This document shows, one piece after another, positions 1-16,626 of a DNA stretch of 22,694 nt. The notes under the pieces were generated by a model. That model was not told where the DNA came from. It worked only from the letters and a program-made list of their open reading frames with translations, and made no database searches. Location of the stretch: the NCBI GenBank assembly GCA_048882485.1, contig JBHLRP010000040.1:6004-28697 (forward strand), given 5' to 3'. Origin of the DNA: Candidatus Thorarchaeota archaeon (lineage in GTDB: Archaea; Asgardarchaeota; Thorarchaeia; Thorarchaeales; Thorarchaeaceae). Made by a program: the position numbers and the translations under genes. Each line of letters starts with the position of its first letter. The stretch's first letter is position 1.

Positions 1-330
1 TTCCACGGGAGTAAAAGCTGACTCAATATTGGAGGAGAGTGGAAGAAATAGGACCATCATTATGATGTAAAGGAAAAAGTATGGAATCAGGAATTGCTTT
101 CCTCGAGATACGGCGAAGTATCGTAAATTTCCCCTATATCGATAGTTATTGTAGGTGAAACCAGCCAGGACGAAGAAGATGGCTATTGTAAAACTGCTCA
201 GATGAATCGTAGCAGGATTGAGCCATGGTATCATGGAATGGACTAGTATGACGAAAGTGATTCCGATGCCTTTTGTCACCTCAATCCATTCAAGCCGAGG
301 TAGTTGGGGCTCACCTTCCATACCTTCCAT
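1..330 (-). CDS. Acyltransferase family 3 (Acyl_transf_3, OafA/YeiB-like) membrane protein, 3' end runs off the window
   Basis: Not in the ORF track. Manual translation from ATG at 330 (or 321) gives MEGMEGEPQLPRLEWIEVTKGIGITFVILVHSMIPW...FTIAIFFVLAGF...RGKQFLIPYFF, open to position 1. This matches the R-x-W-I-[DE]-x-x-KG-x-x-I-x-x-V-x-x-x-H, FF-x-x-[SA]G and R-x-x-x-x-x-x-PY motifs of the family. Confidence 0.85.
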   Translation of the reverse strand, partial: MEGMEGEPQLPRLEWIEVTKGIGITFVILVHSMIPWLNPATIHLSSFTIAIFFVLAGFTYNNYRYRGNLRYFAVSRGKQFLIPYFFLYIIMMVLFLPLSSNIESAFTPVE

Positions 331-430
331 GAGTATATTCTCCGCCCTTGTTCCTCTACAAAGTTTTCATTCTTTTAGGGCTTCATCCTGAAGAGTCTTT
401 AGGCGCCCCTTCAGTTGTAGATTGATTCTC

Positions 431-1426
431 ATGTCAGAAGTACTGATTCTTTCACAGAATGAAGTGCAATCCTGTCTTCCCATGGGAAAGACGATCGAGG
501 CAGTACGCGAGGCATATATTGCATTCGCCAAGGGCAGAGTGCAGCTAGCACCAGTTGCACATCTGGATGTCAAGCAGTATAACGGAGAGGTCGATATCAA
601 GCCCGGGTATGTCGAGGACTTTGGAATCATCGGGACAAAGATTGCCAGCGGATACTACGACAACCACAAACTCGGACTGCCGCCAGGAGTTGCCGTCATT
701 GTACTTATGGATCTGAAAACGAGTATGCCCATCGCTATAATGGATGGGACCTACATCACTGCCTACAGAACTGGTGCTGCTGGTGCTGTTGCAGCCGATG
801 TCTTGGCCAGGAAGAATTCAAAGATTGTAGGGGTTGTAGGCACCGGAACCCAAGGAAGAATGCAGATTATGGCCCTGAGAGAGCTCTTCAATATAGAAGA
901 GATTCGGGCTTGGGACATCGTCGGAGAAGTAGCTGAGCGCTATGCAAAGGAGATGGCTGAGAGTCTGGGGATAGAAGTAAATGCGTTTTCAGATGTGGGG
1001 GATGTCGTTCGAGATGTGGATATCGTCGTGACAGTGACTCCGTCTAGAGAGGCATTAGTCAAGAGTGATTGGATAGGAGAGGGCGTCCATATCAATGCAA
1101 TAGGAGCAGATGGCCCAGGGAAGCAAGAACTGGACCCCAAGATTGTGGCGAATGCAGACAAAATTGTGGTGGACAGCCTTGTCCAGTGTCGAAGGATTGG
1201 AGAGATTCAACATGCTTTAGCACAGAACCTCATTACTGAAGACAATGTGCATGCCGAGATAGGCCAGATTCTGATTGGTGACAAGTCTGGTCGGGAGTCA
1301 GACGAGGAGGTAACCATGTTTGATTCAACTGGTCTAGCAGCTCAGGATATTGCTGCTGCATACCTGGTCTATAAGGAAGCCAAGGAAAAGGGACTGGGAC
1401 TGACTACAAATCTACTAGACGTCTAA
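431..1426 (+). CDS. Ornithine cyclodeaminase / mu-crystallin family NAD(P)-dependent enzyme (EutC-like / archaeal alanine dehydrogenase family)
   Basis: Motifs GEVDIK, K-x-ASG-YY-DN-x-x-LGLP, T-x-x-RTGAAGAVA, GTGTQG Rossmann loop, HINAIGAD-x-PGK-x-E and FDSTG-x-A-x-QD. ATG at 431 preferred over TTG at 422. Confidence 0.92.
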   Translation: MSEVLILSQNEVQSCLPMGKTIEAVREAYIAFAKGRVQLAPVAHLDVKQYNGEVDIKPGYVEDFGIIGTKIASGYYDNHKLGLPPGVAVIVLMDLKTSMPIAIMDGTYITAYRTGAAGAVAADVLARKNSKIVGVVGTGTQGRMQIMALRELFNIEEIRAWDIVGEVAERYAKEMAESLGIEVNAFSDVGDVVRDVDIVVTVTPSREALVKSDWIGEGVHINAIGADGPGKQELDPKIVANADKIVVDSLVQCRRIGEIQHALAQNLITEDNVHAEIGQILIGDKSGRESDEEVTMFDSTGLAAQDIAAAYLVYKEAKEKGLGLTTNLLDV

Positions 1427-1438
1427 GGTGAGTGTGTC

Positions 1439-2401
1439 GTGGAAGAAATCAGCTTGGAGAGCATTCGGAGGGCGCAAAAGACCATCAAGAAATATGTCAA
1501 AGCCACACCGATTGTCCGTTCATATTCCCTCAGTCAACGGTGCAAGGGCGAAGTCTATCTTAAGCTGGAAAATCAGCAGCACACTAACTCGTTCAAGGTT
1601 CGCGGTGCACTAAACAGAATGTCACAGCTGAAAGCTAGAGAGAGGAAGAAGGGAGTTGTCACCGCCTCGTCTGGAAATCATGCACAAGGCGTTGCATATG
1701 CCGCGCAGCAGCTCGGCATACCTGCCACAATAGTCGTACCAAATGAGGTCTCCAAGGCCAAGTTGAAGAAGGTCAAGGAGTTTGATGTTGATGTTGTTTT
1801 GGGCGGAGGGTTCGATGAGGTAGAGGCAAAAGCTAGGGAGATGGCCAAGACCGAGAAACTGACCTATGTAAGCCCCTACAATGACTACGCGGTAATGGCT
1901 GGACAGGGCACTATTGGCCTAGAGATTATTGAGGAAATCGACTCCTTTGACTCGATTGTCGTACCTGTTGGGGGAGGCGGATTGATTGCAGGCATCGCTG
2001 TGGCTGTCAAGAGCACTAGACCTGATACTCAGGTGATAGGAGTCCAGACACCGGGGTCAGCCACAATGTATGAGTCATGGCTCGCAGGCGAGGTCGTTGA
2101 GATAGAAGAGTCAGACACCCTTGCAGAGGCATTTTTGGGAGGGGTTGAAAAAGGGTCTCTGACGCTGGATGTCATAATGAATTATGTCGACGATATTGTG
2201 CTAGTCGATGAAGAAACCGTGGGAGATGCAATCCGCCTTCTTTGGATTGAGGAGAAACAGGTGATTGAGGGAGCGGGAGCGACTGCCATAAGCCCCCTGC
2301 TAGAAACGCCTGACCGATTCAACGGACTTACTGTTGTCTGTGTTGTAAGTGGAGGCAATATCGAACAGCCACTATTTGACCGAATTGTTGGAAGAACTTA
2401 G
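1439..2401 (+). CDS. PLP-dependent serine/threonine dehydratase (short form, no ACT domain; EutB/TdcB-like)
   Basis: LKLE-x-x-Q-x-T-x-SFKVRGA (PLP lysine), [15 protein letters not shown] and SGGN motifs. AGGTGA RBS upstream, 12 nt after the previous stop, so probably co-transcribed. Confidence 0.93.
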
Positions 2402-2421
2402 CGAATCATGTAAATTCGGTC

Positions 2422-2462
2422 AATAGAGTCATCGGCTCAGGAATGCGCTCGTTGTCATTCTT
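2422..2462 (-). repeat. Inverted att-like site; contains an exact 12-bp copy of tRNA-Gly(GCC) nt 1-12
   Basis: Plus strand 2445-2456 GCGCTCGTTGTC equals 3759-3770. The minus strand reads AAGAATG-ACAACGA-GCGCATTC-CTGAGCCGATGACTCTATT, which aligns with the tRNA 3' end and trailer TCGAATC-CCGGCGA-GCGCACCA...TTCAGCCCTATGACTCAATT. Confidence 0.7.
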
Positions 2463-2514
2463 ATTCCTAATGTAGTTTCTAGGAGCGCGGACGAAAGGGA
2501 ATCATTCCTCTGAA

Positions 2515-3543
2515 TCATTGATATCGATTTATCCTCCAGAGGACTGATGCCAACAGCTGGTATTGATTCCAAACATGTCCTGGTCTTATTTCAAAGCCTT
2601 TTTCCTTCAGACCTAGACTGTAGGCGATTGATGATCTTAATTTCTTGAACTCTCTGAAGACTACGAAAGCATACACTCGATGCTCAACATATACACTCGA
2701 TTCAGCACTGGAAATCTCCTGAATAAACTCTCGAAGCTTTGTTCTATTGCACTGCTTATCCTGTAGCCATTGAGTCTTGAAACGTTCGATCGATTTTGAT
2801 GGTTCACCCCAAGGAGTTCGTTTTCCTTTATGCTTTTTTTCAAATTGTTTGCGAAAGAGAGAGAGTTGCTTGAAGTGTTCTTTGACTTCCTTATTGGTGA
2901 GTTCACAGAACAATTGATCGAAAGATTTTGGATATGGTGGTTCAAGTACTAACACACGAGTTTCATTCCTTAGCAGTCCATCCAACAGAGTGATGATTTC
3001 ATCTTCTAGAGTTTCGACAGCTATTATCCAACGCAATGGATTGGATACAATCTTGGTCAAACGTGTCACATCCTCTATGTCTATGTTGAAACCACGCCCC
3101 AAAAGATAACGTTCAATGTCCTTAACAATCGTATTTCTGTGCCTCTCAATAAATGGTTGAATTTCAAGTACAGGTGGACCCTCCCATTGAAAACTGCTAT
3201 CATCAGTTGCTTCAAGTGCTGTTTCTATCCATTCTACCTCGATTGCTCTCAATTTCCTGAGTGCACGAATATAGTATTTGTTACACATGGCATGTTCTAC
3301 ATAGAGTAATTCTGGAAGAATAGATTCCAAGTAGTTGTGTTTGGTTTTTGAAGCTCCTGAACGTATGCTTCTGAATCGCATAATGGATTTGGGAAGTCGT
3401 ATAGTAGTGGAGTATTCTACGCCCATGACCTGAGGAATTCTTTTTTCATCTTGGTCTGTCCATGTAATTTCAAAACATGTTCCACTGACTGAGAAGTCTT
3501 TCAATTCATTTGACCTTTTCTTCCCATCTTCTTTACTAACCAC
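2515..3543 (-). CDS. Hypothetical protein (orphan, AT-rich, 342 aa)
   Basis: Long ORF with protein-like composition, visibly more AT-rich than the flanking housekeeping genes. No family recognised and the start codon is uncertain. Confidence 0.7.
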   Translation of the reverse strand: MVSKEDGKKRSNELKDFSVSGTCFEITWTDQDEKRIPQVMGVEYSTTIRLPKSIMRFRSIRSGASKTKHNYLESILPELLYVEHAMCNKYYIRALRKLRAIEVEWIETALEATDDSSFQWEGPPVLEIQPFIERHRNTIVKDIERYLLGRGFNIDIEDVTRLTKIVSNPLRWIIAVETLEDEIITLLDGLLRNETRVLVLEPPYPKSFDQLFCELTNKEVKEHFKQLSLFRKQFEKKHKGKRTPWGEPSKSIERFKTQWLQDKQCNRTKLREFIQEISSAESSVYVEHRVYAFVVFREFKKLRSSIAYSLGLKEKGFEIRPGHVWNQYQLLASVLWRINRYQ

Positions 3544-3725
3544 TCCTATTTTCCCTCCGTTCTTAAGTTGTTATGCATCGTTATGAAAGAACTACCACTT
3601 CCTCTAATCAAGACTTATCTTGGAGTTGTGTTCTAGAAGGGGAGTCATTGCTGTTTCTTCTGTTGATGTTCCTTAATTGTATATTGACAATAAGGGGTCG
3701 TGCGTAGTGGCACCAAAGCAGTATC

Positions 3726-3732
3726 TTTAAAA
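3726..3732 (+). promoter_or_regulatory. TATA-like box of tRNA-Gly(GCC)
   Basis: TTTAAAA lies 27-33 nt upstream of tRNA position 1. The TCC tRNA has TTTAAAT at a similar distance. Confidence 0.55.
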
Positions 3733-3758
3733 CAATCCCAGATAGGAAAATCCTCTAA

Positions 3759-3896
3759 GCGCTCGTTGTCTAAAGAATGTCAGTTTCTGATGTTCTGACT
3801 AAGGGGCTATGATGGATCCCTGCCAATGCGCGGGGGTTTATCCCTCGGAACCGTAGAACGGATCCGGCCCGGGTTCGAATCCCGGCGAGCGCACCA
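3759..3896 (+). tRNA. tRNA-Gly(GCC) with two introns (3773-3802 at position 14/15; 3826-3858 at 37/38), CCA encoded
   Basis: Removing both introns gives GCGCTCG TT GTC TAGGGGCTAT GAT G GATCC CT GCC AC GGATC CGGC CCGGG TTCGAAT CCCGG CGAGCGC A CCA, a clean cloverleaf colinear with the intronless tRNA-Gly(TCC) at 16552. Both introns show bulge-helix splice geometry. Confidence 0.93.
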
Positions 3897-3996
3897 CTTC
3901 TTCTTCAGCCCTATGACTCAATTCTTCTAAAGGCAAGTCTTAGGAAGCCCTTATCAACAACTACCAGGAATCAAACACAAAATCTTGGTGAAGCTG

Positions 3997-4173
3997 ATGA
4001 GCCACAAAAGAGCAATAGTTTGGGCAGTAGCGGGAGTCTTCATAATGTTCTCGTTCTTCGAGCTAATGAATTTGGCATTCAGTAGTGGAGACATCCTTAT
4101 AGGACTCGTATTGACACTAATAGCAGCGGGAATTGGCTTCTATATACTAGGATACGGCTTTGACATAGAATAG
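3997..4173 (+). CDS. Small two-TM membrane protein (cassette 1)
   Basis: Two hydrophobic segments. GGTGA RBS before ATG 3997 (the track starts at TTG 3985). Confidence 0.65.
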   Translation: MSHKRAIVWAVAGVFIMFSFFELMNLAFSSGDILIGLVLTLIAAGIGFYILGYGFDIE

Positions 4174-4194
4174 ATAGGCTAAATGAATTCATAG

Positions 4195-4216
4195 TCGATT
4201 CCCAACCAGCGCACTA
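4195..4216 (+). repeat. Degenerate tRNA-Gly 3'-end repeat R1
   Basis: TCGATTC-CCAACCA-GCGCACTA, 17/22 identical to 3875-3896. Confidence 0.7.
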
Positions 4217-4234
4217 TTCCCCTAATTGTGGTTT

Positions 4235-5317
4235 CTATTTTACCAGACTCTCAAAAAGCCGAGCTGATCTATTATCCTGAGGATCAGTTTCAACTGCCTG
4301 CTTCAATGCTTCCCGTGCTTCCTTGATGCGGTTCTGCTTTAGCAGGGCAATTCCAAGGTCACACCAGGCAGCTGTGAGTGACGGGTCAATTCCAATTGCC
4401 GATCTTATTGCAATTTCCGCTTCTTCGTATTTGCTTTGAGCGAGCAAGCATTTGCCCAATGTGTGGGGGAAGCCAGCATATTCAGGGGACTCTTCAGCCA
4501 GTTTCCTATACTTGGCTTCAGCTTGGGGCATGCTTCCCAAACCACTCAATGAGATAGTGAACAACTGCCTAGCTCTAGGATTAATTCGACCCAGTTCTGC
4601 TCGTTTAGTCGAGAGGTCTATTAACCCCATCTCTTCAAGCTTTACCCCAAGTCTATCGATTGCAAAGTCAGTAAGTGGCTCAATGCTTATTGCTTTCTCA
4701 TATGCCTCAAGGGCTTCATCCAACATGCTTTGCATGAGCAGGACAACTCCTAGTTTGACCCACACTACGTAGCTCCGGCTGTTGAATTGAAGGGCTTTCT
4801 GATAACTATGGATAGCTTCTTCGTATTTCTGGTCGCGTTGTTGAAAATCGGCCAACTTCTCCCACTGAAATGAATCATCTGGATGGGTTCTCACGCTTTC
4901 TTCATAGGCTTCCTCTGCTGATACTTCAAGACCTAGCTCAGCAGATAGCTCAGCAATGTGGTTCCATGATGATGTGTCATCTGGTTTTCTAGAAACTGCT
5001 TCGCGAAAGCATTCTATTGCCTCAATCTTGAGGCCTTCTGACATCAAGAAGAAACCTAGCTGCCTCAGGGCGTTGGGACTCGCTTCATGAGTCCGAGCAG
5101 CCTCTCTTAGCATGGTCTTGGCAGCCTCTCTTTTACCATGATTGTAAAGGAATATTGCGTAGGAAGTCAAACCCGCCTCGAATTCCGGATAAATAGATGT
5201 CAATTCTATATAGGTATCCTCAGCTGCTCTGTGATCTCCTTTCTGTTCAAACTCAATGGATTTGGTCAAGAGTCCAAATGCTCTTTCATGTCGTATCCAA
5301 TTCCGAATCCTACGCAA
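4235..5317 (-). CDS. Tetratricopeptide repeat (TPR) protein (cassette 2)
   Basis: Recurrent roughly 34-aa units such as WVKLGVVLLMQSMLDEALEAYEKAISIEP and WCDLGIALLKQNRIKEAREALKQAVETDP. Confidence 0.9.
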   Translation of the reverse strand: MRRIRNWIRHERAFGLLTKSIEFEQKGDHRAAEDTYIELTSIYPEFEAGLTSYAIFLYNHGKREAAKTMLREAARTHEASPNALRQLGFFLMSEGLKIEAIECFREAVSRKPDDTSSWNHIAELSAELGLEVSAEEAYEESVRTHPDDSFQWEKLADFQQRDQKYEEAIHSYQKALQFNSRSYVVWVKLGVVLLMQSMLDEALEAYEKAISIEPLTDFAIDRLGVKLEEMGLIDLSTKRAELGRINPRARQLFTISLSGLGSMPQAEAKYRKLAEESPEYAGFPHTLGKCLLAQSKYEEAEIAIRSAIGIDPSLTAAWCDLGIALLKQNRIKEAREALKQAVETDPQDNRSARLFESLVK

Positions 5318-5403
5318 GGCCTATTCTTCCAGTGATAGCATTGGATTAGTAGCATATAGATTATTGTGAGCGGAACTTGATGCATCCGTTACAAGCCTAT
5401 GAA

Positions 5404-5430
5404 CCGGGTTGGAATCTAGAGGGCGCACTA
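5404..5430 (+). repeat. Degenerate tRNA-Gly 3'-end repeat R2
   Basis: CCGGGTTGGAATC-TAGAGG-GCGCACTA, 21/28 versus 3869-3896 with one gap. Followed by ATTCTCCTTCAGTTGAGTCAAT, which resembles the tRNA trailer CTTCTTCTTCAGCCCTATGACTCAAT. Confidence 0.8.
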
Positions 5431-5456
5431 ATTCTCCTTCAGTTGAGTCAATCCGC

Positions 5457-6098
5457 TCAAGTTGATTGAAGTGACAAAGTTATTTCATAGAACTCTGGCA
5501 TCAAGCCGGTTTGCCAAATCCGAATCTCCTGAGGGATTCCCGTGTCTAGCTCTACTTCTCCCTCCCAGCCATATCCACCATCATAATAGAAAGACAGGAA
5601 CCCAATAACGAATAGATCATTCTGAAAGTAGGAGAAATGCGTGTCGCACGAATACCCGTAGTCACCAGGGTCTGATTGATCAGGATAGAACCTATCCAGT
5701 GTGAACCAGCCACCAATAGGCAGAAAGCACCGTGAAATGGCCTCGTTGATGAAATCCGTTGCATTGCTGCCAATGGTAGTTCCATTCTGATGAACAATCG
5801 GAAGGACTATTGTCGACTTTGATGAGTCCAATACCTCGTCGATGAATTCCGTTTCATTCCAATCATTAGACAAGTCAGGAAGTTCGGTTATCTCAACAGT
5901 CACGAGCGTGTTGTTCAATTCGATGTAGGGGGAAGATGTCCGTAGAACAGTGACTAGGAATGTAAATGTGTTTCCAGTTTGGACATTCCATTCGAATGAG
6001 GGAGTCGGCGGGTAGCTGGTCATAGCAAGCCAAGAGGCCACAAGAATAATGGCTATCAAGCCAGCTGCAAAGGCTTTCCTGTAATTTCGATTCTGCAC
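5457..6098 (-). CDS. Hypothetical secreted or membrane-anchored protein (cassette 3)
   Basis: Basic N-terminus followed by a hydrophobic helix, then a beta-rich acidic domain with several N-x-S/T sequons. GGGAG RBS upstream of the GTG start. Confidence 0.8.
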   Translation of the reverse strand: MQNRNYRKAFAAGLIAIILVASWLAMTSYPPTPSFEWNVQTGNTFTFLVTVLRTSSPYIELNNTLVTVEITELPDLSNDWNETEFIDEVLDSSKSTIVLPIVHQNGTTIGSNATDFINEAISRCFLPIGGWFTLDRFYPDQSDPGDYGYSCDTHFSYFQNDLFVIGFLSFYYDGGYGWEGEVELDTGIPQEIRIWQTGLMPEFYEITLSLQST

Positions 6099-6170
6099 GC
6101 GACACTCCCTCTGTAAATAGTCTATTTGAGAACAGTGTTTTCTGTATTTCTAATCGAAAGCATTACTTTC

Positions 6171-6193
6171 TTCGAATCAGGGCTTGCGCACAA
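6171..6193 (+). repeat. Degenerate tRNA-Gly 3'-end repeat R3
   Basis: TTCGAATC-AGGGCTT-GCGCACAA, 18/23 versus 3874-3896. Followed by CCTCTT (tRNA: CTTCTT). Confidence 0.8.
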
Positions 6194-6297
6194 CCTCTTG
6201 TTTTCCTAGAATCATCGATACGTTATTTTCATCTTCGAATGAGTGCCTAATTTGTAGCAATAATAAGCCTTCAAAATCCAATGGGGATTGAAGTGAG

Positions 6298-6780
6298 ATG
6301 TCTTTTCGGTATACTGTGAGAGTAGGATATTTCCTGCTTGTTCTAACCCTACTATCGCCCTTCAGCGCAATGATCCAAGCCATAACTGAAGATAATACCA
6401 CAATTGTGCTACTTGCGCCCTTGTGGCAGTACATATGGCACAGCACATTGCCAGTTTATTTTGTATTCTCTCCATACGGTTTGCTATACTTTCCATACTA
6501 TGGTTTGAGTGTGTATATCTCGTGGGTAGCTTACAATACAGCCCGTAGGCAGAATATTGAAAGAAAACAGTATGCATGGAGATTAGTCATCATAATAGCT
6601 CTTCAGATTGCAGTGATACTGCTAATTCCACCCTTTAGTGGGGACCCTCAGCCCGTGAATATTCCACTGCCTATAATGGGCGTACTGGGACTTCTTCTTA
6701 CAAACTATACTGTGAGAAAGCTAACTAGTCCATGGGAAAATCAAGAGGTCTTTTCTGAATCAGAGAAAACTCATGCATAG
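6298..6780 (+). CDS. Hypothetical multi-pass membrane protein (cassette 4)
   Basis: About four hydrophobic segments, with an IPLP motif before the last TM. Confidence 0.8.
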   Translation: MSFRYTVRVGYFLLVLTLLSPFSAMIQAITEDNTTIVLLAPLWQYIWHSTLPVYFVFSPYGLLYFPYYGLSVYISWVAYNTARRQNIERKQYAWRLVIIIALQIAVILLIPPFSGDPQPVNIPLPIMGVLGLLLTNYTVRKLTSPWENQEVFSESEKTHA

Positions 6781-6786
6781 CAAGTA

Positions 6787-6810
6787 GTTCGAATCTCTGT
6801 GAGCGCACCA
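6787..6810 (+). repeat. Degenerate tRNA-Gly 3'-end repeat R4
   Basis: GTTCGAATC-TCTGTGA-GCGCACCA, 21/24 versus 3873-3896. Followed by ATTCTCATTCACCGTCCTATG (tRNA trailer: CTTCTTCTTCAGCCCTATG). Confidence 0.9.
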
Positions 6811-6862
6811 ATTCTCATTCACCGTCCTATGCAGGATAACACGTATATCATGAGAGCGTGAG

Positions 6863-7312
6863 ATGTCTGTTATGAATAAGCATCTTCTCCACATGGCTGC
6901 TCGTGTGTGGCTGATTGAAACGCTGTTCTCGATATTGAATTTCTTCGTTCTCATGAATCTCGTCTATGAACCAGCGTGGGGTGAATTGGTAGCACACCAG
7001 ATAGGGATGTCGACAAGAATTGTAGTTATCGCTATTCTCGCATATATGCTACTTCGATATGTCCAGGAATACGAAACGAGAGACCTTGTTCATGTAGGGT
7101 TGCTCTGGGTTGGACTGGAGCTATTGTTCGAATGGGGTGGCAGTCTATTGGTTGGGCGATCTGTAGAAGAAATTCTCATTGGATGGAACATCTTTGCGGG
7201 CTACATTTGGCCCTATGTACTACTCACCTACCTTCTATCCAATCTTGTAATAGGTTTAGCTTTCCATCCAGGGAAGAGAACAGCTGGTCATAGCTCCGAG
7301 ATAAGAGATTGA
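6863..7312 (+). CDS. Conserved hypothetical four-TM membrane protein (cassette 5)
   Basis: Four hydrophobic helices with AHQIG, GLLW-x-x-L-x-L-x-FEW and WNI-x-x-G-x-IWP motifs, reminiscent of a widespread uncharacterised prokaryotic family (recognised from memory, not searched). Confidence 0.8.
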   Translation: MSVMNKHLLHMAARVWLIETLFSILNFFVLMNLVYEPAWGELVAHQIGMSTRIVVIAILAYMLLRYVQEYETRDLVHVGLLWVGLELLFEWGGSLLVGRSVEEILIGWNIFAGYIWPYVLLTYLLSNLVIGLAFHPGKRTAGHSSEIRD

Positions 7313-7342
7313 CGATGACTTGATACGAACTTCTTGTAGCTC

Positions 7343-7364
7343 TCGAATCCCGATGAGGACACCG
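7343..7364 (+). repeat. Degenerate tRNA-Gly 3'-end repeat R5
   Basis: TCGAATC-CCGATGA-GGACACCG, 17/22 versus 3875-3896. Followed by TTTCTCACTTCATTTGATTC. Confidence 0.75.
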
Positions 7365-7475
7365 TTTCTCACTTCATTTGATTCGTCAACCAACCAATAT
7401 GGGTAGATTGTGATTGCTAGGGCGATCCTATGCAAGATTGAAAAGGAAGTTGGCATCTAGTGCTCTTTTGGCGAG

Positions 7476-8603
7476 TTGAGTCGAATGCAAAAGGGCACTT
7501 CTGGACCCAGTTCTAAGATGCACCCGGTAGTAGGTGTGCTTTCAAGAGCACCAATGAAACTCATCTATACAATAATCCTCGTTGGTATACTTACCTATGC
7601 TGGGTTTCTTGTACTCACTCTCTTGACAGGACAGATGACACAGGTCTTCTTCTCATTTATGCATCTGGTGCAATTGGATTTCTCCTTATTGATTACTGTT
7701 GGACTCTTCTTCTTGGACAATTACTACAAGACATTGGAGAGGAGGCTCAGAGAGATACGCTATGTCTTCTTGATCGATGATGGTGAGTTTGAGAGATATC
7801 TCGAGAATCTGACCGGCAAGATGAGCAGTGCACGGGGCTTCTTGCTAAGCCTTCCATTTATTGTTCTAGCAGTAGCGTCTATTTTTCTCTTTGTGATGCC
7901 AACAATGCCTAATCTTCTATTCCCTGTGGACCAGCTATCACTTGTCTGGCTATACCTGTCGATAGTCGAGTTCAGTTTCATTATGCTTCCATTATTTGGC
8001 GTGGCAATCTGGCTTGGTGTCGTAGTAATGTCTGTTTCAAAAGATATTGGACGAAAGCTGAAGATTTCATTGGAACCGATTTCGCCGGATCGTGCGGGCG
8101 GACTAGTTTCGTTCTCAGAGGTGCTCTTAAGAGGCGTGTTCATGTTTTCTCTTTTGCTGGTACTGTTGATACCCCTGTTCGTTTATCTTGTGAACAGTCT
8201 GAGCGCAAGTAGCCCCTTATTGGCGCTAATACCCACAGCAGGCCTAGTATTGGCAATTATGACCATTTCCGTATTCTTCCTGGTCCCTCAATACCACATT
8301 CATAACATCCTAGAAGTAGAGAAAAAGAAGCACTTATCCCAAGTCAGCGACGAAGTCAATGCAGTCCTTTCTAACATCCGAAGCATTCTCTCCGCATCGC
8401 CTACAAGATCTGACATTCCATCTCAGCAACTTACTCTCGTGAGCCTACAGCTTACTATGCTCTTTGATCAAGTAGAGAAAATGAAGACATGGCCCTCCAC
8501 TCTGTGGATAGCCGCTAAGGCAATCAGCTCTCTAAGTCTCATTCTGCTAACATTCTTCATCAATCAGTTTCTCTTGATTTATATAGAATCAATTATCGGC
8601 TGA
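7476..8603 (+). CDS. Hypothetical polytopic membrane protein (PD-x-x-GGL ... WP motif family)
   Basis: About seven TM segments, with SPDRAGGL, PQYHIH and MKTWP motifs. The true start may be the downstream ATG at 7518. Confidence 0.8.
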   Translation: MSRMQKGTSGPSSKMHPVVGVLSRAPMKLIYTIILVGILTYAGFLVLTLLTGQMTQVFFSFMHLVQLDFSLLITVGLFFLDNYYKTLERRLREIRYVFLIDDGEFERYLENLTGKMSSARGFLLSLPFIVLAVASIFLFVMPTMPNLLFPVDQLSLVWLYLSIVEFSFIMLPLFGVAIWLGVVVMSVSKDIGRKLKISLEPISPDRAGGLVSFSEVLLRGVFMFSLLLVLLIPLFVYLVNSLSASSPLLALIPTAGLVLAIMTISVFFLVPQYHIHNILEVEKKKHLSQVSDEVNAVLSNIRSILSASPTRSDIPSQQLTLVSLQLTMLFDQVEKMKTWPSTLWIAAKAISSLSLILLTFFINQFLLIYIESIIG

Positions 8604-8685
8604 CGGTACTCAATGTGCGCTTTGAAATATTGCATTGTTCAAATCATGACAAAAGGTATACGTTCTAGTCGATGCAATCTGAAAT

Positions 8686-9174
8686 ATGGTGAGAAACAAA
8701 CGCATACGAACACGAATAGTTTCGATTCTCCTTTCTATTTCCATCATGGTCCCAGCTACTTGGGAGGCCCAAATTTGGGGTGTAGGGGAACATATAGTTA
8801 CTGATGCGGGATTTTCTCAGATTATATTCGCAGGTGCATTCTACGCTATTGAATGGAATAGCTCAAACGCAATGGGCCATGTACTTAATACCTTCGAACT
8901 AATGATTCCGCAAGTCAATCCCGTCGCTCTGCTAGTATGGACGATTGGGATTCTTTCATTATTAGTATCAGTGCTGGTTCTAAACAATAGACTTGGCTCT
9001 GGAAAGGGCTTTCTAATGATTTTCCTAAGCGCGGCTCTTCTCATGCTTGCGCCGCCTATCAATACATCCATCGTAGAAGAGGTCTATACCTATCGGATGC
9101 GACCACTTCTCGTGCCTCAGATTGTTAATTCACTGGTACTCATTTGGTATGCTAGAACCCGAAGCCTTGAGTAA
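8686..9174 (+). CDS. Hypothetical multi-pass membrane protein
   Basis: About four hydrophobic segments. Overall layout resembles the 6298-6780 product. Confidence 0.75.
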   Translation: MVRNKRIRTRIVSILLSISIMVPATWEAQIWGVGEHIVTDAGFSQIIFAGAFYAIEWNSSNAMGHVLNTFELMIPQVNPVALLVWTIGILSLLVSVLVLNNRLGSGKGFLMIFLSAALLMLAPPINTSIVEEVYTYRMRPLLVPQIVNSLVLIWYARTRSLE

Positions 9175-9328
9175 AACACGCCGCTCAAGGTTTAAGTACG
9201 GAAAAATCCAATATTCAAATGACTGTGGGAGAGTTAGCATTCATTGCCGCCACCTCAATACACTGTTTCTACGTCCTAGTTTTCCTAAGGTCTACTCTCA
9301 TAGTCAATTGCCTAATTGAGGAGAAAAA

Positions 9329-10759
9329 ATGGAAGATATCAGACGGATACGATTAGGAATAATGGTTTCATTTACCATTGTGATACTATTCATGACGGTT
9401 TCTGTCACGCCCGTAGCCGCATATGGCAACTCGAGTGGAGTCCGCTCTAACAAGACAGGAAATGACCCTCATGACTGGATTACATTCCGGGCTATCAGTA
9501 TACTTGGCTCGGATGGATATTCGAAAATCAGCGCCGAGGTTAACACTTACTTCGCGAAGATGCAGGAGGGATCTTATGATGCTGACTGGGGAGAAGGAGT
9601 CATTGCAGACCTGCCTGTTGCCGCCAGTGGACACTATTGTGACCCAACTACTGGTTTAGGTTTCAATCTCATTTTCCAAGGTGCTGGGAGCTATGCTCAG
9701 GGATACTTCGACAAAGCTGTAGAACAATACGAAGGCGGGAATAAGGAAGAGGCATATTATAACCTAGGAGCTGCAATCCATGTGCTCCAGGACCTCACGG
9801 TTCCCCATCATGCACATATTTGGGCTTGGGAACAGGCTGGGCATACAACCTACGAAAGCTACATCAACGGAAAAGAGTCCTTCATCAAGGGAATAGGTGG
9901 CCCTGGTTACTATGAAATAGCCACAACTGCAAGTGGCTGGGTCCGCTACAACGCAAAGCAGAGTTATGGATACCACACATATGTGAACGGTGCTTCAACT
10001 TCAGGCAACAACGATTACTGGCATGCGGCCCGGAATCTCTTGCCTATAGCTGTAAAGACGACTGCTGGATTCCTCCGCTTCTTCTATGAGGAGGCCAATC
10101 AGGGGAGAAAAGAAGCCGAGTTCTCTGGAACTCTATACAGTACAGGGACATCATATGTCAACTATTTCGATGTGCCCTTTGGCGATCATACAATTGTACT
10201 GGTCGGCAATGAGCCTGGTGCAGATGTTGACCTCTATGTGAAATGGGGGGCAACGCCCTCTTACCCCTACACTGCATCTAGCTTGACAGGAGATTCAATG
10301 GAGAAGATCACTATACGAGGGAAAGGTCGACTATATTTCAAGGTCTACTCTTGGAAAGGTAGTAGCAGCTGGAAACTAGCTGTCATCTACGGAAAGCCAG
10401 ACAAGTCAAAATCGATCACCGATTCACTCAGCTATTCTTCTGATCGCACAGACACCTTCAGCCTCAAAGGAGGACTGACTGAAGGCTACATGATTGGCTG
10501 GGCATTCATGGCTGGGCCTGATGGCAACGACTTCGATCTCTATGTACGATGGGAGAGAGCCCCTACGACTTCCACCTATTACGACAGAGGCTATACATCG
10601 AAACCTCAGGAGATATGTGATGCTAGGTCACCCAAGTACGCACCTTCCTCTGGATACCAAGTGAAGGGCTATATCTATAGCTACAACTATCTCTTCTATG
10701 TGATGGCGAGGGCATACAGAGGCTCAGGCGACTACATGCTCCTGATTCTCATATTTTAG
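9329..10759 (+). CDS. Secreted zinc-dependent phospholipase C / S1-P1-nuclease-fold protein with two C-terminal PPC-like domains
   Basis: Signal peptide ending V-A-A. Tri-zinc ligand pattern H(DWI)...DAD...HY-x-DP...LG-x-A-x-H-x-LQD-x-x-x-PHH...H-x-x-YE. C-terminal DVDLYVKWG-x-x-P and DFDLYVRW-x-x-APT motifs are typical of pre-peptidase C-terminal domains. GAGGAG RBS. Confidence 0.85.
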   Translation: MEDIRRIRLGIMVSFTIVILFMTVSVTPVAAYGNSSGVRSNKTGNDPHDWITFRAISILGSDGYSKISAEVNTYFAKMQEGSYDADWGEGVIADLPVAASGHYCDPTTGLGFNLIFQGAGSYAQGYFDKAVEQYEGGNKEEAYYNLGAAIHVLQDLTVPHHAHIWAWEQAGHTTYESYINGKESFIKGIGGPGYYEIATTASGWVRYNAKQSYGYHTYVNGASTSGNNDYWHAARNLLPIAVKTTAGFLRFFYEEANQGRKEAEFSGTLYSTGTSYVNYFDVPFGDHTIVLVGNEPGADVDLYVKWGATPSYPYTASSLTGDSMEKITIRGKGRLYFKVYSWKGSSSWKLAVIYGKPDKSKSITDSLSYSSDRTDTFSLKGGLTEGYMIGWAFMAGPDGNDFDLYVRWERAPTTSTYYDRGYTSKPQEICDARSPKYAPSSGYQVKGYIYSYNYLFYVMARAYRGSGDYMLLILIF

Positions 10760-10778
10760 TGATGCTTTAGTTTGATGA

Positions 10779-10826
10779 GGGCATAGCAGGCTGTGAAATG
10801 CTGCTGTGCCCCTAGCTTCTTTTATT
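10779..10826 (+). terminator. GC-rich hairpin followed by a T-rich tract downstream of the PLC-like gene
   Basis: GGGCATAGCAG (10779-10789) pairs with CTGCTGTGCCC (10801-10811), 11 bp with one G-U, followed by CTAGCTTCTTTTATT. Confidence 0.55.
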
Positions 10827-10919
10827 GACTTGTGAAAACGGGCAGCTTCTTCCTCGTTGACACAAAGCCCAAACTATATTTCGGATTGTTAGTATCCTGA
10901 CTTAATGAGATGACCAAAC

Positions 10920-11162
10920 ATGATGAACAAGTTCCAAGACCTGATGAATGCCAAAGTTCCTGTACAGCTAGTAGTGGACGCAATAACCGATAGAGCGCAT
11001 CACAAGGTTGTCAAGGGCAGAATAAAACTTGTAACCAGGAACTACATCGAAATAGGCAGGGCGGCCACAGGAGATGAAAAATCCCAGTTTGGTACCGAAG
11101 AAGTCAGAGTCATAATTCCAATAGAGAAGATTGCCGAGGTAATATACTCACAAAGTGAATAG
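10920..11162 (+). CDS. Small hypothetical protein, probable Sm/Hfq-like fold
   Basis: N-terminal helix, then VPVQLVV / VKGRI / YIEI / VIIPIEKIAEVI strand pattern comparable to the Sm1 and Sm2 motifs. Confidence 0.6.
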   Translation: MMNKFQDLMNAKVPVQLVVDAITDRAHHKVVKGRIKLVTRNYIEIGRAATGDEKSQFGTEEVRVIIPIEKIAEVIYSQSE

Positions 11163-11180
11163 GCGTAAGCAGGAATGTGC

Positions 11181-12122
11181 TTAATCCGGAATCCCGTGAA
11201 TCCTAACGGCGTTCTCCCAATAGAGCTTGCTAAGGACTGATACAGGCAAATCTAGACCATTGATGAAGGTCCCACCAGTATCTTTTGTGTCTGCATCATC
11301 GAATGGGAGGGGTCTTTCTCGGACATTGGTTTCCCATAGAAGCCTCTGGGCAAGATATCTTCCGGCAAAGTAGTCCTCACTCCCCCTGTTGGTCGACAAA
11401 TCCGTACCAAACATGATTCTATCAGAGTACTTGAGCAAGAAATCACGAGCCTTTTCGACATCCTTGCTGAGCTCTCTTGCCATCCATCGGGAAGATGCCG
11501 TATCAATGATTACATTTGGAAATCTATCCAACCATCTGGCAAGGTTTGATAGGTGATGTATCTCTGGCTGTGAGCCAAAGTGGGGAAGCTGAAAGACAAG
11601 GCGGGGATGGCGTTCAATAACATTCTCAAGTTGTGCAAGACTATCAGTCTTTGTTCCGTATTTCGTTTTATCTTGATAATGTAAGTCATAGTATGTATCA
11701 GGATCGGCAACATGAAGCAGAAGAGGGACGTTATGGTCCTCGAGGGCTTGAAAGATTGGGTCTAGGCGGAGATCATCAATTCTGAAGTCATCAGGGACCT
11801 CTTGGTAGTAGTCCCTCCAACGAGGACCAAACCACATCTTTGCAAGTCCATAGCCCTCTGCCTCAATTCTCTCAATAACTGCTATGACCTTGTCCACCTC
11901 AAAATTCGCAACATCACTAAGAGATAGATACTTGGCAAAAACGAACCGATTCGGGAACCGCTTTCTTATTGGTTTGAGATTACCCTCTCCATGCACAATA
12001 GCGACCTGAGATGCTACGTCAAACTCCTCTTCGATCTTCACCATCTGCATCAGATCATCTGAATGACCGATATGCGTGTGCGCATCGAAAATTTGCCCTT
12101 TGTATTTCCACTCTTCCGTCAA
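11181..12122 (-). CDS. Amidohydrolase superfamily metal-dependent hydrolase (Amidohydro_2-like)
   Basis: FDAHTH, LLLHVAD, PHFG, IDTA and RIMFGTD motifs, with C-terminal Y-x-ENA. Confidence 0.9.
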   Translation of the reverse strand: MTEEWKYKGQIFDAHTHIGHSDDLMQMVKIEEEFDVASQVAIVHGEGNLKPIRKRFPNRFVFAKYLSLSDVANFEVDKVIAVIERIEAEGYGLAKMWFGPRWRDYYQEVPDDFRIDDLRLDPIFQALEDHNVPLLLHVADPDTYYDLHYQDKTKYGTKTDSLAQLENVIERHPRLVFQLPHFGSQPEIHHLSNLARWLDRFPNVIIDTASSRWMARELSKDVEKARDFLLKYSDRIMFGTDLSTNRGSEDYFAGRYLAQRLLWETNVRERPLPFDDADTKDTGGTFINGLDLPVSVLSKLYWENAVRIHGIPD

Positions 12123-12190
12123 AATTGACCAATTCTGCGATATTATAGGTATTGAAAAGCGATTCCGTTTAGGTCCTTTTCCACGCTGAG

Positions 12191-12877
12191 CTAATCCCAG
12201 AGCTTCTCTTTGACTGTTGTTTTGCGTTCAGGGCTTAAGGAGGCATAGCCAGAGAGCTTCTCATCAGGAATACCCCAGATGGTATCCGCGATGCAATCGA
12301 AATGATGCCATTTGTAGTTCAGATGATCTTGAAAATATGTAGGCTCACCTATTCTCAGTGAGTCCTTAGGAATAGTACTGTTGCATGTCTTGCAGGATGC
12401 TCGACCTGACACTGCTGGCTCTATCTTCCAAGTGTCTTCTGGATTGAACTTCAGGCGGCCAGGTTCTCCAAGAGCCAGGAGGAACTCTTCAGGATCGCCT
12501 CCAACAATAGCGGGTGTAAATCGAAGAGTGAACTTGTCATAATCAGATCCGATGTATAGAACGTCGACATTCCTATTCTTGAACGTCTTCTTGATGCTTG
12601 TACCCGGGGCAAATGTTCCATGTTTCCTCATGAAAGCAAGCAGCTGCTTTGCAAGAAGCTCGCCTGCCTCTTTTTTCCCCGTAAGATCCACTAGGCCATC
12701 ATCCTTTGCTAGCTTATAGGTTGTGACGACAACGGTCATGCCTGTGTCTATTGTTTCACGTCCCTTCTCTAGCACAATCGATCCAACAGGCACCTTCGAA
12801 CGAGCCTTTGGCATTTCGAAGGTTTCTGGGTCTACGTAGTACGCCCAATCTGCTTCATACGGAACCCAATCAGTCAT
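12191..12877 (-). CDS. Protein with a C-terminal PARP-type zinc finger (zf-PARP) and an unknown N-terminal domain
   Basis: IEPAVSGRASCKTC-x-x-x-IPKDSLRIG...KWHHFDC...LSGY-x-SLS matches the C-x2-C...H-x2-C zf-PARP consensus (E-x-AKSGRA-x-CK-x-C...I-x-K-x-x-LR...W-x-H-x-x-C). Confidence 0.85.
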   Translation of the reverse strand: MTDWVPYEADWAYYVDPETFEMPKARSKVPVGSIVLEKGRETIDTGMTVVVTTYKLAKDDGLVDLTGKKEAGELLAKQLLAFMRKHGTFAPGTSIKKTFKNRNVDVLYIGSDYDKFTLRFTPAIVGGDPEEFLLALGEPGRLKFNPEDTWKIEPAVSGRASCKTCNSTIPKDSLRIGEPTYFQDHLNYKWHHFDCIADTIWGIPDEKLSGYASLSPERKTTVKEKLWD

Positions 12878-13020
12878 TTAACATGCACCTCAATTCCTCT
12901 GTTCTCGATGATTCATAAAAAACCCACGCTTGACTTCACATCGCAGTCTTTGAGTATGTCTTCTACATGACTCAATTCTTAAGATGACCTTTGATTCTGG
13001 CGAGTTGAGAGAATTCAATT

Positions 13021-13851
13021 ATGACATCAGTAGCGCTTGTGAAATTCAAGGATAGCCTGAAGAGCACACTCAGTGCGGGCTTGGACTTTATTGGTGGGTT
13101 TTCAAGTCTGAAATCACCAATACTCATTAAGCCTAACATCTGCACGATTTCTGATGCTACTGGCTCGTCAGTCACAGACGTGAGAGTCGTTGAGGCCATT
13201 ACTAGACTCATTCTTGAGGAAGACCAAGGATTAGTCGTTAAGATAGTTGAATCAGACAGTCAGAGTAAGTACGCAGAAGCCGCCTTTGAGAAGTTTGGAT
13301 ATGCGGACTTGGAAAGGTCAATGAAGAAGGAGGGGTTCGATGTGTCTGTGGTCAATCTCAGCAAATCACCTCTGATCAAAGCAGATTTCAAAGGTAGATA
13401 TTTCGACAAGCCCGAGCTGCCAGGACTGCTAGTCAATCCCCACTATTTTGTTTCAGTCGCTGCATCTAAGACGCATTATCTTACTACAATCACTGGATCT
13501 TTGAAGAACCAGTTCGGAGTTCTTCCCAGAAAGGACCAAGCCTTCTATCATTCGGATATTGATAATGTGGTTATCGACCTGAATAGTTTCATACAACCAG
13601 ACCTGTGCATCGTTGATGCAAGAGTTGGTGTGGAGGGCTGGAACGGACCCAAAACGCGACGACTTGATGCATTCATCATTGGGCGCAAGCCTGCTTCAGT
13701 CGATGCCACAATGGCTCGGATCATGGGCTTCGAGCCAGGTGAGATTCCACATATACTGGAATCTAGTCAGCTAGGTCTTGGCAACATTAATCCAACCGTC
13801 TTGGGAGAAGCCATTGAATCAGTGCAGGTCGCGTTAAATCTGCCTAAATGA
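13021..13851 (+). CDS. DUF362 domain protein
   Basis: LIKPN, TD-x-RVV, KTH-x-x-T-x-x-TG-x-LKN-x-FG, IVD and VDA-x-x-A-x-x-MG motifs. Confidence 0.88.
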   Translation: MTSVALVKFKDSLKSTLSAGLDFIGGFSSLKSPILIKPNICTISDATGSSVTDVRVVEAITRLILEEDQGLVVKIVESDSQSKYAEAAFEKFGYADLERSMKKEGFDVSVVNLSKSPLIKADFKGRYFDKPELPGLLVNPHYFVSVAASKTHYLTTITGSLKNQFGVLPRKDQAFYHSDIDNVVIDLNSFIQPDLCIVDARVGVEGWNGPKTRRLDAFIIGRKPASVDATMARIMGFEPGEIPHILESSQLGLGNINPTVLGEAIESVQVALNLPK

Positions 13852-14375: not shown

Positions 14376-16385
14376 CTAGCCCTCCTCTACCCAAGAGAAC
14401 TTCCTCTGTAGAGTTGCAGGGTAGACTTTTCGCCAAGGATACTCCACCTTCTGACACCACTTGTAGATAGTCTTGGGATGGATGTATGACTTGAGGGCTG
14501 TTCCGAGGTTCCAAGTGCGACAATCCCGTGCGAGGGAATAATCCACCTCTATCTTTCGCTTCGCTAACTTGGCCTTTTCCAATCTATCCTTTGCGATTTT
14601 GACCGTCTTCTCAGCACGAGTTATCCGAGCAGCAGACTTCTCTTTGAAGTCTACAAGAGCTTGTTGCTTCTTCTCAAGAGTTGCCCTGCTTTTATTGTAG
14701 CGCTTTCGAGCCCTTGTAAGACCCTCCTCCGCCTTGTCCAAACGTGCCCTACTCCGTTCTATACTGGCTTGGGCATCCTCTAGACGCTGCTTCTTGGTTG
14801 TCTTACCCTTCCTTTTGCTGCCTCTTGTTCGACGTTTTCTTTCTCGAGCATTGTCCCAAGTAGTCTTGGCGTTGTTCCGCTTCTCACGCCAAGCAGCGAC
14901 TGACTGCTTGTCCTTCTCGACAATCTCCTTCTGCCTAGAAACCGCAGACTGTCGCTTGGCAATATTCTCTTTCTCTTTCTTCTTGACCGCCCTCAACCTC
15001 TTCCTTTTTTCAGCAAGTTGAGATTCAGCTTTCTTAACACGTTCTCCTGCCTTTCTGATTCGTTCCTTATAGCGGTCTGCTGATTTAGCCCATCCTTTCG
15101 GTGCTTGTTTTGTATGGTTCATCACCCGTGCAACTTCAAGGTTAGCACGCTTCACTGCCTCTTTCTTGATGAATTCCAGATCAGTTCTTTTGGCCTTGCT
15201 CCGACCAAGCTCCTCCTTCATTGTTAGAGTTGCATGAAATGTTCTAAAGACTTTGGCAGTGAGGTCTTTGTCGAATCCGCCAAGGAAACGGTTGACTTGT
15301 ACGCTTCCCACACTTGGGAAGATTTGTGCAGGTCTTTTCGGATCTACACGAGTGCTTTTGCTCTTCCGCGTCTTGAAGGACTCCAATCTCTCCACTGCAT
15401 TGCTATAGAGTTCTACGAACACCTCGTAGACGTCAGGGGGCATCTCAAGCTCCTTATGCCATGCAACACTATCCTTGCCAAGGAAGTCGAATACAACAGA
15501 GTTCGGTGTGAATGTGAGGTGCTCAGCCCTGAGAGTTGTCGCACCCACAGTATCAGCTTCATCGGGATCTTTCTCATCACCAACTCGGAGACTCAGTCTA
15601 TCAATGAGATAACATGCAGCAGCTACCATTCTTGTCCTAGAGTTGCTGGAGTGGATGCCCTCCATAATATAATCTCGAATCTCGGATATCTTTCTGGACA
15701 GTTTCATGGCCTTGTCGAACTTGGCTGCTTCACGTTCCTGTTTGATAGGAGTGCTGTCATGGAGCCAAATGTACTTTGTACTCTTGGTGAGTTCATCAGT
15801 CCATTTTGCCACCCACATACTATCTGGAGCCCACTCAATCTTAGCCCAGTCACCCTCCGGACCCTCGGCAGCGGGACTCAGGTTCAAGGTGATGTCTCGT
15901 TCTCTTGCACCCTGCTTCCATCGCCCTCGCAGGGGATGCTCCCCGCGACCCATAAAGATACCAGATGGCTCTGTCTGGTAATTGCCAAGCTCCATGCGTT
16001 CTCCATCTACGAGTGCATAACCAAACTCCTCTTTCAGCCGTTCTCGTTCGGCCTTGCGCGCCTCCCTTGCGGCTTTCTTCTCCTCCTTAGTCATAGCTTC
16101 CTTTGCTGCACGTTCTTCTTCAACGAATTGGATTACGGAAGAAAAGTCAACTTCATCTAAGTCTAGCGGAGGTTCTATCTTCAGAGCTTTACTGAAGTCG
16201 CTCATGAAGTTTTCAATGAAGACAGAATCCTCAACGTAGGGCGTACCTAGTTTTCTCACCCACGCAATCGCCATCTCTTCTTGAAGCTGATTAAGAATTA
16301 TGGATTCGCCGCGAACAACTATCTCAAAATGATGTGGCTCTGGTGGTTTTAGTACAATGATGCCTTTATGTTCAAGGGACTCCAT
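14376..16385 (-). CDS. top1: DNA topoisomerase IB, eukaryotic-like, with a long basic coiled-coil linker
   Basis: The full catalytic pentad is present: LRVGDEK (R), FLGKDS (K), KVFRTF (R), MNH (H424) and GTALKSY (Y634). Also F-x-GRG-x-HP-x-x-G-x-x-K and a terminal KF-x-W. Confidence 0.96.
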   Translation of the reverse strand: MESLEHKGIIVLKPPEPHHFEIVVRGESIILNQLQEEMAIAWVRKLGTPYVEDSVFIENFMSDFSKALKIEPPLDLDEVDFSSVIQFVEEERAAKEAMTKEEKKAAREARKAERERLKEEFGYALVDGERMELGNYQTEPSGIFMGRGEHPLRGRWKQGARERDITLNLSPAAEGPEGDWAKIEWAPDSMWVAKWTDELTKSTKYIWLHDSTPIKQEREAAKFDKAMKLSRKISEIRDYIMEGIHSSNSRTRMVAAACYLIDRLSLRVGDEKDPDEADTVGATTLRAEHLTFTPNSVVFDFLGKDSVAWHKELEMPPDVYEVFVELYSNAVERLESFKTRKSKSTRVDPKRPAQIFPSVGSVQVNRFLGGFDKDLTAKVFRTFHATLTMKEELGRSKAKRTDLEFIKKEAVKRANLEVARVMNHTKQAPKGWAKSADRYKERIRKAGERVKKAESQLAEKRKRLRAVKKKEKENIAKRQSAVSRQKEIVEKDKQSVAAWREKRNNAKTTWDNARERKRRTRGSKRKGKTTKKQRLEDAQASIERSRARLDKAEEGLTRARKRYNKSRATLEKKQQALVDFKEKSAARITRAEKTVKIAKDRLEKAKLAKRKIEVDYSLARDCRTWNLGTALKSYIHPKTIYKWCQKVEYPWRKVYPATLQRKFSWVEEG

Positions 16386-16551: not shown

Positions 16552-16626
16552 GCGGCCATAGTCTAGGGGTTATGATCCGAGCCTTCCAAGCTCGTAACCC
16601 GGGTTCGAATCCCGGTGGCCGCACCA
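16552..16626 (+). tRNA. tRNA-Gly(TCC), intronless, CCA encoded
   Basis: GCGGCCA TA GTC TAGGGGTTAT GAT C CGAGC CT TCC AA GCTCG TAAC CCGGG TTCGAAT CCCGG TGGCCGC A CCA. Confidence 0.97.

Follow-up and report, generated by a model that had tools for sequence, protein, structure and literature searches.

Results

Layout of the tRNA-Gly(GCC) array

The window analyzed here, a stretch of 22,694 nucleotides from a Candidatus Thorarchaeota archaeon (GenBank assembly GCA_048882485.1, contig JBHLRP010000040.1, positions 6,004 to 28,697 of the forward strand), contains a tRNA-Gly(GCC) gene followed by an array of small genes that are separated by copies of the tRNA 3' end. The organism names attached to homologues also place the host in Thorarchaeota. 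This anchor tRNA lies on the + strand (3759-3896), matches Rfam family RF00005 with 33 bits, and has an encoded CCA; comparison with intron-less alleles places one intron in its D-loop (~3773-3802) and another in its anticodon loop (~3826-3858). ARAGORN did not call the tRNA at 3759-3896. The initial annotation of the window had proposed five degenerate copies of the tRNA 3' end, one per gap, with one open reading frame per interval and both orientations in use, and each of these features was confirmed. The copies are all in direct orientation on the + strand, one in every intergenic gap of the array, with identities of 15-19/22 to the last 22 nt of the tRNA: repeat 1 at 4195-4216 (17/22), repeat 2 with its 22-nt core at 5410 (15/22 with one deletion; 5404-5430 with the T-stem included), repeat 3 at 6172-6193 (17/22), repeat 4 at 6789-6810 (19/22), and repeat 5 at 7343-7364 (17/22). 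From the tRNA outward they are spaced by 320, 1215, 762, 617, and 554 bp. The gene calls of the array are identical in an independent assembly, and the 99.9% match of an independent assembly to positions 1-13543 rules out an assembly artefact.

We divided the array into modules, each holding a single gene and the repeat distal to it. Module A (3897-4216, +) consists of a gene for a 62-aa membrane peptide (3985-4173) and repeat 1. Module B (4217-5430) encodes a 360-aa TPR protein on the - strand (4235-5317) and ends with repeat 2, and module C (5431-6193) encodes, also on the - strand, a 213-aa protein with an N-terminal hydrophobic segment (5457-6098), followed by repeat 3. Both module D (6194-6810), with repeat 4, and module E (6811-7364), with repeat 5, carry + strand genes for membrane proteins, of 160 aa (6298-6780) and 149 aa (6863-7312), respectively. 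Annotation and profile searches revealed no integration or transfer genes in these units.

In the whole genome, 19 of the 7.9 million positions show at least 17/22 identity to the tRNA 3' end, and most of them are tRNAs; the Poisson probability of four such matches within 3.5 kb is ~2e-10 or less. A repeat matrix trained on 47 distal copies, all from other genomes, ranks the five sites of the window first, with scores of 9.7-30 bits against -4.4 for the next site (a 14-bit gap among non-tRNA positions). The genome-wide match count and the ranking by an outside-trained matrix rule out a generic promoter or terminator motif. The identity of the copies to the tRNA exceeds 0.8 and drops to background at a point ~7-10 nt left of the T-loop, and copies tend to be more decayed outward, with borderline significance (rho -0.28, permutation p 0.054). 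Retro-copying of the tRNA is unlikely, given that the copies run on into the genomic T-rich trailer and that some retain introns; a search of the genome for a reverse transcriptase found none. Repeat 1 differs from its counterpart in one relative (G011) by three changes within 4 bp, the flanking modules being 96-98% identical (binomial p ~0.03, post hoc), which possibly reflects inactivation of the site.

Gain, loss, and reordering of modules among relatives

Genomes across Thorarchaeota differ by gains, losses, and reordering of modules, and the breakpoints lie in the repeat; such a pattern had been anticipated for this locus. Relatives are denoted here by G numbers (G000 being the genome under study) and contigs by C numbers, which refer to the genome under study unless another genome is named. 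The order is A-B-C-D-E-F in the genome under study, F being the next gene after E, and becomes A-B-X-E-F in G011, B-D-E-F in G005, and B-E-D in G010, where X is a 3.8-kb block with a regulator and an ABC-transporter. X occurs alone in G004 and F alone in G013, while a homologue of module D lies immediately behind the tRNA in G007 and behind module E in G010; module A is missing from G005 and G010. Module B, at constant length, has C, X, D, or E as its right neighbour and A or the tRNA as its left one. The sequence on either side of each junction goes with the module on that side, and the switch falls inside the repeat. Lengths are conserved as well: 1192-1195 bp for B in four genomes, 532-534 bp for E in three, and 741 bp for C in two genera, the counterpart in G020 (another genus) lying between two repeats at 63% identity. 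Identity to G011 reaches 98.3% in module A and 96.1% in module B, against 86.5% in core DNA, which points to recent exchange between species. Module E is patchy (17 of the 86 family genomes), and its protein has hundreds of homologues, one of which, 72% identical, is labelled Chloroflexota.

At least one copy lies behind tRNA-Gly(GCC) in 9 of the 14 genus genomes examined, and up to seven or more copies occur in other genera, as seen in a second genome set picked for having matches. Perfect 28-bp copies are present in many relatives. As in additive islands, the same locus thus differs among relatives by cassettes added or lost, which are marked by tRNA-fragment repeats. The initial description as single-gene cassettes holds in the window but not strictly, since the Gly arrays of relatives include multi-gene modules of 2-4 kb. 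The larger modules of G015 (L044) and G074 (L101) encode caspase-domain, metallo-beta-lactamase-fold, radical SAM, and TcmP-like proteins.

The array had been delimited to 3869-7386, which is adequate for the five repeats; its evolutionary extent goes beyond 7386 and is complemented by an insert upstream of the tRNA. Probable older module genes, judged by their context in relatives, encode a 375-aa membrane protein (gene F, 7476-8603), a 162-aa protein (8686-9174), a zinc-dependent phospholipase C (9329-10759), and an 80-aa protein (10920-11162). The families of the genes at 7365-11162 (+ strand) are each tRNA-adjacent or repeat-bounded in relatives (G013, G011; G066, G076; G063; G064), so this region probably consists of older modules whose repeats have eroded beyond detection; the matrix detects no decayed repeats at 7.4-11 kb. 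Further along the window, a gene for a eukaryote-type topoisomerase IB (14376-16385, - strand) adjoins tRNA-Gly(TCC) (16552-16626) and is kept in relatives.

Arrays at other anchors

A look for the same pattern at other tRNAs had been suggested, and about a dozen tRNA loci of the genome do have downstream copies of their own ends, including His, two Leu, Arg, Tyr, Asp, Phe, and others, with up to 14 copies. The tRNA-Tyr copies begin at the anticodon arm. One tRNA-end family has 14 copies on contigs C103 and C82, which were joined, and its intervals hold about one gene each; these copies are on the opposite strand from the C103 tRNA gene with the same end. Another tRNA-end family has seven copies behind its anchor on C71, where the region 5807-11124, compared with C132, shows different module sets between the same two repeats, with outer flanks 95-99% identical. 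The two contigs may come from sister strains (the genome is 90.5% complete with 5.8% contamination), and in either case the alleles switch at the repeats. At a tRNA-Ser (C58, 1505-5943), duplications are found on both sides, one being a 25-bp copy of the 3' end and the other a 61-bp copy apparently spanning the promoter and the 5' end.

Protein genes serve as anchors too. The 3' end of rps19 anchors a similar array at C85 (385-8615) and in G015 (C84), G005 (C13), G014, G009, and G016, in which the last 55-90 bp of the gene are copied between one- or two-gene modules. About 18 rps19 copies have a common left edge at a T-loop-like TTTCA-N7-TGAAA dyad (5-7-5), with chance probabilities, estimated post hoc, of ~0.02 for the dyad and 4e-4 for the motif. 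A single T-loop-like motif for all anchors was considered and discarded, as it fits only tRNAs and rps19. At C6 (68760-72280), small genes lie between five copies (21-23 bp) of the sequence immediately upstream of rpl13e. Across all anchors the repeats measure 12 to ~90 bp, and cargo families appear at differing anchors.

Other intergenic repeats were observed as well. One of up to ~85 bp, with the core GCTGAGCACCCTTTCATTTT, separates small genes in ~16 copies at C15 (19500-50300), C124, and C143; it is found in 14 of the 16 genus genomes, and neither an Rfam match nor an anchor gene was found for it. Further families occur at C141, C13, and C34, at C92 and C59, and at C46, and two of these resemble copies of protein-gene 3' ends with stop codons.

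The 5' insert and tRNA pieces from other alleles

Comparison with relatives identified a further insertion at the tRNA-Gly(GCC) locus. A 12-nt stub of the original tRNA 5' end (2445-2456, +) lies behind an old promoter, the TATA box of which (2409-2415) is mutated in the genome under study, and is separated from the tRNA by a 1.3-kb insert of 39% GC (2457-3758) that provides a new TATA-like box (3726-3732). Five relatives (G002, G005, G009, G001, and G011) do not have 2457-3758, and their promoter near 2410 leads directly into the tRNA; the insert is present in the independent assemblies L066 and L067 and was also seen in the Logan runs SRR24270831, SRR24270834, and SRR30758836. The insert, the new TATA-like box, and the D-loop intron occur together, and the closest relatives have neither insert nor D-loop intron. 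According to PMC8371274, citing Sugahara et al. (2012), tRNA introns have been proposed to travel on integrating DNA, and our 5' insert with its D-loop intron is consistent with such movement. The insert contains an orphan gene of 342 aa (2515-3543, - strand), the one homologue of which lies beside a short rps19 3'-end copy. Family and fold searches gave no convincing match for this orphan and do not support its being a hidden recombinase; a 535-aa array protein of G015 is likewise unsupported in that role.

Similar stubs occur in five genomes of another genus (G063, G068, G076, G078, and G089), in which a stub of the tRNA-Gly 5' end lies 14-16 bp ahead of a 5' end of different sequence. In the three of these that were examined, the new 5' end fits a changed 3' acceptor strand, and two have a D-loop intron; the five may share one origin. 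In all six cases the stub ends at nt 11-12. Modules also carry pieces of tRNAs from other hosts or isoacceptors, as indicated by two observations: ~5379-5403 in module B is the decayed anticodon arm of a tRNA-Gly(TCC) allele (score 24; null maximum 16), and copies in G009 and G078 contain a T-arm intron known from the G003 allele.

Proposed mechanism and search for the enzyme

We propose, with a probability of roughly 0.55, that these arrays arise by tandem accretion of integrase-less modules through several visiting tyrosine recombinases. Each module would comprise a replacement tRNA 3' end with its T-rich trailer, one or a few cargo genes, and a short left arm. It would enter by one crossover in the T-arm that reconstitutes the tRNA and displaces the former 3' end, together with the older modules, outward, after which the repeats would decay and fix the modules in place. 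The enzymes responsible for the crossover would be tyrosine recombinases encoded by viruses or plasmids that are present transiently and use the same sites; these visitors would take resident modules with them or act in trans to excise them. The recombinase acting in trans that the initial annotation postulated is thereby retained as a presumed component. The proposal combines the observed anatomy, in-repeat breakpoints, reordering, recent interspecies exchange, and recurrence at many anchors with a putative crossover enzyme, putative circles, and a putative vehicle.

Tyrosine integrases are established to integrate by a single crossover with restoration of the target, at T-arm, anticodon-arm, and 3' sites and, in the case of pTN3-like integrases, at the 5' half; the T-stem dyad is also used by such enzymes (PMC8371274). 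The units described here have direct copies of the target gene's end as their boundaries, the target is restored, and the geometry of the array fits integration of this kind. The clustering of left edges at the T-stem (Gly), the anticodon arm (Tyr), and the 5-7-5 dyad (rps19) also favours accretion by tyrosine integrases. Further points in its favour are the patchy occurrence of integrases in the family, the integrase remnant on C13, and the tendency of copies to decay outward.

Several results weigh against this proposal. In the genome under study we found no intact tyrosine or serine recombinase with the profiles PF00589, PF16795, PF00239, PF07508, PF02371, and PF01867 or with custom profiles. 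No integrase was found in any Gly array examined. When 20 integrase loci were extended by up to 10 kb, a tRNA gene was nearby in one and was never tRNA-Gly, and no viral contig has either the tRNA-Gly or the rps19 site. No end motif common to unrelated modules was found. Some copies reach 17-58 nt further into the tRNA, one class of them deriving from the TCC isoacceptor, and the anchor families without a dyad imply that many different enzymes would be needed.

The stand-alone XerA-like or other tyrosine recombinase that the initial annotation had suggested looking for was not recovered in intact form: no resident XerA was found in the genome, genome searches for SSV-type recombinase, IS110, and Cas1 were empty, and an integrase profile built from 49 sequences yielded only zinc ribbons and one N-terminal fragment, with no catalytic domain. 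What is present is a remnant, both frameshifted and truncated, that is similar to the N-terminal part of a tyrosine recombinase (C13, 45750-46100). We describe the enzyme as not found rather than absent because the genome is incomplete and free elements are poorly binned. Nor did PF00589 reveal a universal XerA-like gene in the family, as it matches in 30 of the 86 genomes and in none of the other 56, which include 15 of the 23 of high quality. No integrase-bearing element at tRNA-Gly(GCC) was found among the fragmented family assemblies, and no integrase gene, whole or att-split (tycheposon, pNOB8, or SSV type), was found in the modules.

Discussion

The main rival to accretion by visiting recombinases, which we regard as possible but clearly less probable, is homology-driven capture without a dedicated site-specific enzyme. 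A relative's DNA, comprising a conserved gene end and its neighbour, would be integrated by RadA-type or low-specificity recombination with one homologous and one short junction; long duplications would loop out, and short or decayed ones would survive. The diversity of anchors (about a dozen tRNAs, rps19, the region upstream of rpl13e, and others), the range of repeat lengths, and the presence of cargo families at different anchors are in line with this, as are the missing module-end motif and intact recombinase. So are the tRNA-Gly(TCC) arm in B, the foreign-lineage T-arm intron in the G009 and G078 copies, and the 5' stubs that, in five genomes of a single genus, accompany a new acceptor allele. 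However, left edges fall non-randomly, mostly at the T-stem/T-loop, the anticodon arm, or the rps19 dyad; in six cases out of six the 5' stub stops at nt 11-12; and 12-25 bp is short for RecA-family recombination. It is improbable that the modules are inert scars of large integrase-bearing elements trimmed by deletion, with no minimal unit that moves. Trimming is an established origin of cis-mobilizable elements (CIMEs; PMC5704250) and of integrase-less archaeal elements (PMC8371274), and the decayed copies, the 2-4 kb multi-gene modules of relatives, and the integrase remnant on C13 agree with it. Yet minimal units with both ends lie beside differing neighbours (B, E, and C at conserved lengths), perfect 28-bp copies occur in many relatives, no integrase was detected in any Gly array, and the C71 and C132 alleles switch exactly at repeats.

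We consider it very unlikely that an unrecognised host enzyme is at work, such as topoisomerase IB acting where transcription is high, or a recombinase that has diverged beyond the reach of current profiles. Topoisomerase IB and tyrosine recombinases share chemistry, topoisomerase IB is present, the anchors are housekeeping genes, and arrays are abundant although 56 of the 86 family genomes are without a PF00589 match; but the topoisomerase gene neighbours the locus with or without an array, and the 49-sequence profile yielded no catalytic domain. A true integron or an integrase-less attC cluster is hardly credible. Integrons are enriched in Asgard archaea (PMC9668308), and one gene per unit in variable order would suit them. 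In a strict sense, however, the "integron-like" label of the initial annotation does not apply: the tRNA-derived sites fold no better than shuffles on either strand (z -0.54 to 0.81), module ends are not shared, gene orientation is mixed (A, D, and E +; B and C -), and no IntI was found, with neither a PF00589 nor a catalytic-domain match in the genome. Its broader idea of gene capture on a tRNA stands as regards integrase-less, stacked modules that vary among relatives; the platform is specific neither to this tRNA nor to tRNAs at all, as the rps19 arrays demonstrate.

The arrays are known in kind and are distinguished by their scale, small units, range of anchors, and missing enzyme. Tandem accretion of streptococcal CIMEs (PMC5704250) likewise involves integrase-less units that keep both att ends and stack at one target, with tRNA and ribosomal-protein 3' ends among the targets; in contrast, the units here mostly measure 0.3-1.5 kb and carry a single gene, form stacks of up to 14, use many anchors per genome, and have no helper element that we could find. 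The arrays work like the additive flexible island fGI1 of Ca. Actinomarinales (PMC7771536), but that bacterium has mainly one envelope island plus two loci, whereas in this Asgard archaeon they are genome-wide and extend to the end of a protein gene, to the 5' ends of tRNAs, and to alleles with introns. In the tycheposon islands of Prochlorococcus (10.1101/2020.12.28.424599), serial tRNA integrations also push older DNA outward and leave partial tRNAs, but tycheposons encode an integrase, which no module here does. Archaeal tyrosine-recombinase elements (PMC8371274, PMC6563490) share the T-arm, anticodon-arm, and 5' targets, the short att sites, and the restored target, and tandem reuse of tRNA sites, pTN3-type targeting of 5' halves, and proposed intron transfer via attP have been described for them; unlike the present modules, they are multi-gene and mostly have an integrase. 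The Asgard elements reported to date in PMC8813620 and PMC11529989 are larger, measuring 2.5-44 kb. Integrons and integrase-less attC clusters (CALINs), including archaeal ones (PMC9668308), have in common with the arrays small exchangeable one-gene units, the newest apparently beside a fixed site, but differ in that here we found no attC hairpin and no intI, gene orientation is mixed, and the sites derive from host genes. Our literature searches, which left most subscription journals outside their coverage, returned nothing on such a layout in Thorarchaeota or other Asgard archaea.

The layout appears to give Thorarchaeota, across the lineage, a way of exchanging accessory genes. A more general version, which we hold to be doubtful, is that these archaea run an integrase-free capture in which a single activity, either encoded by the host or driven by homology, recombines the short ends of essential genes. 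If this were true, any module with a replacement gene end could dock at tRNAs, rps19, and other sites, which would explain much of the accessory genome and how tRNA alleles and introns move between lineages. The large genomes of Asgard archaea contain many acquired genes, yet the elements reported from them to date comprise multi-gene viruses, plasmids, transposons, and integrons. The arrays represent a further route of gene gain, with exact breakpoints and dozens of modules per genome, to which integrase-seeking tools are blind. With them, gene gain in Thorarchaeota can be counted and roughly dated, and the hunt for the enzyme has a specific target.

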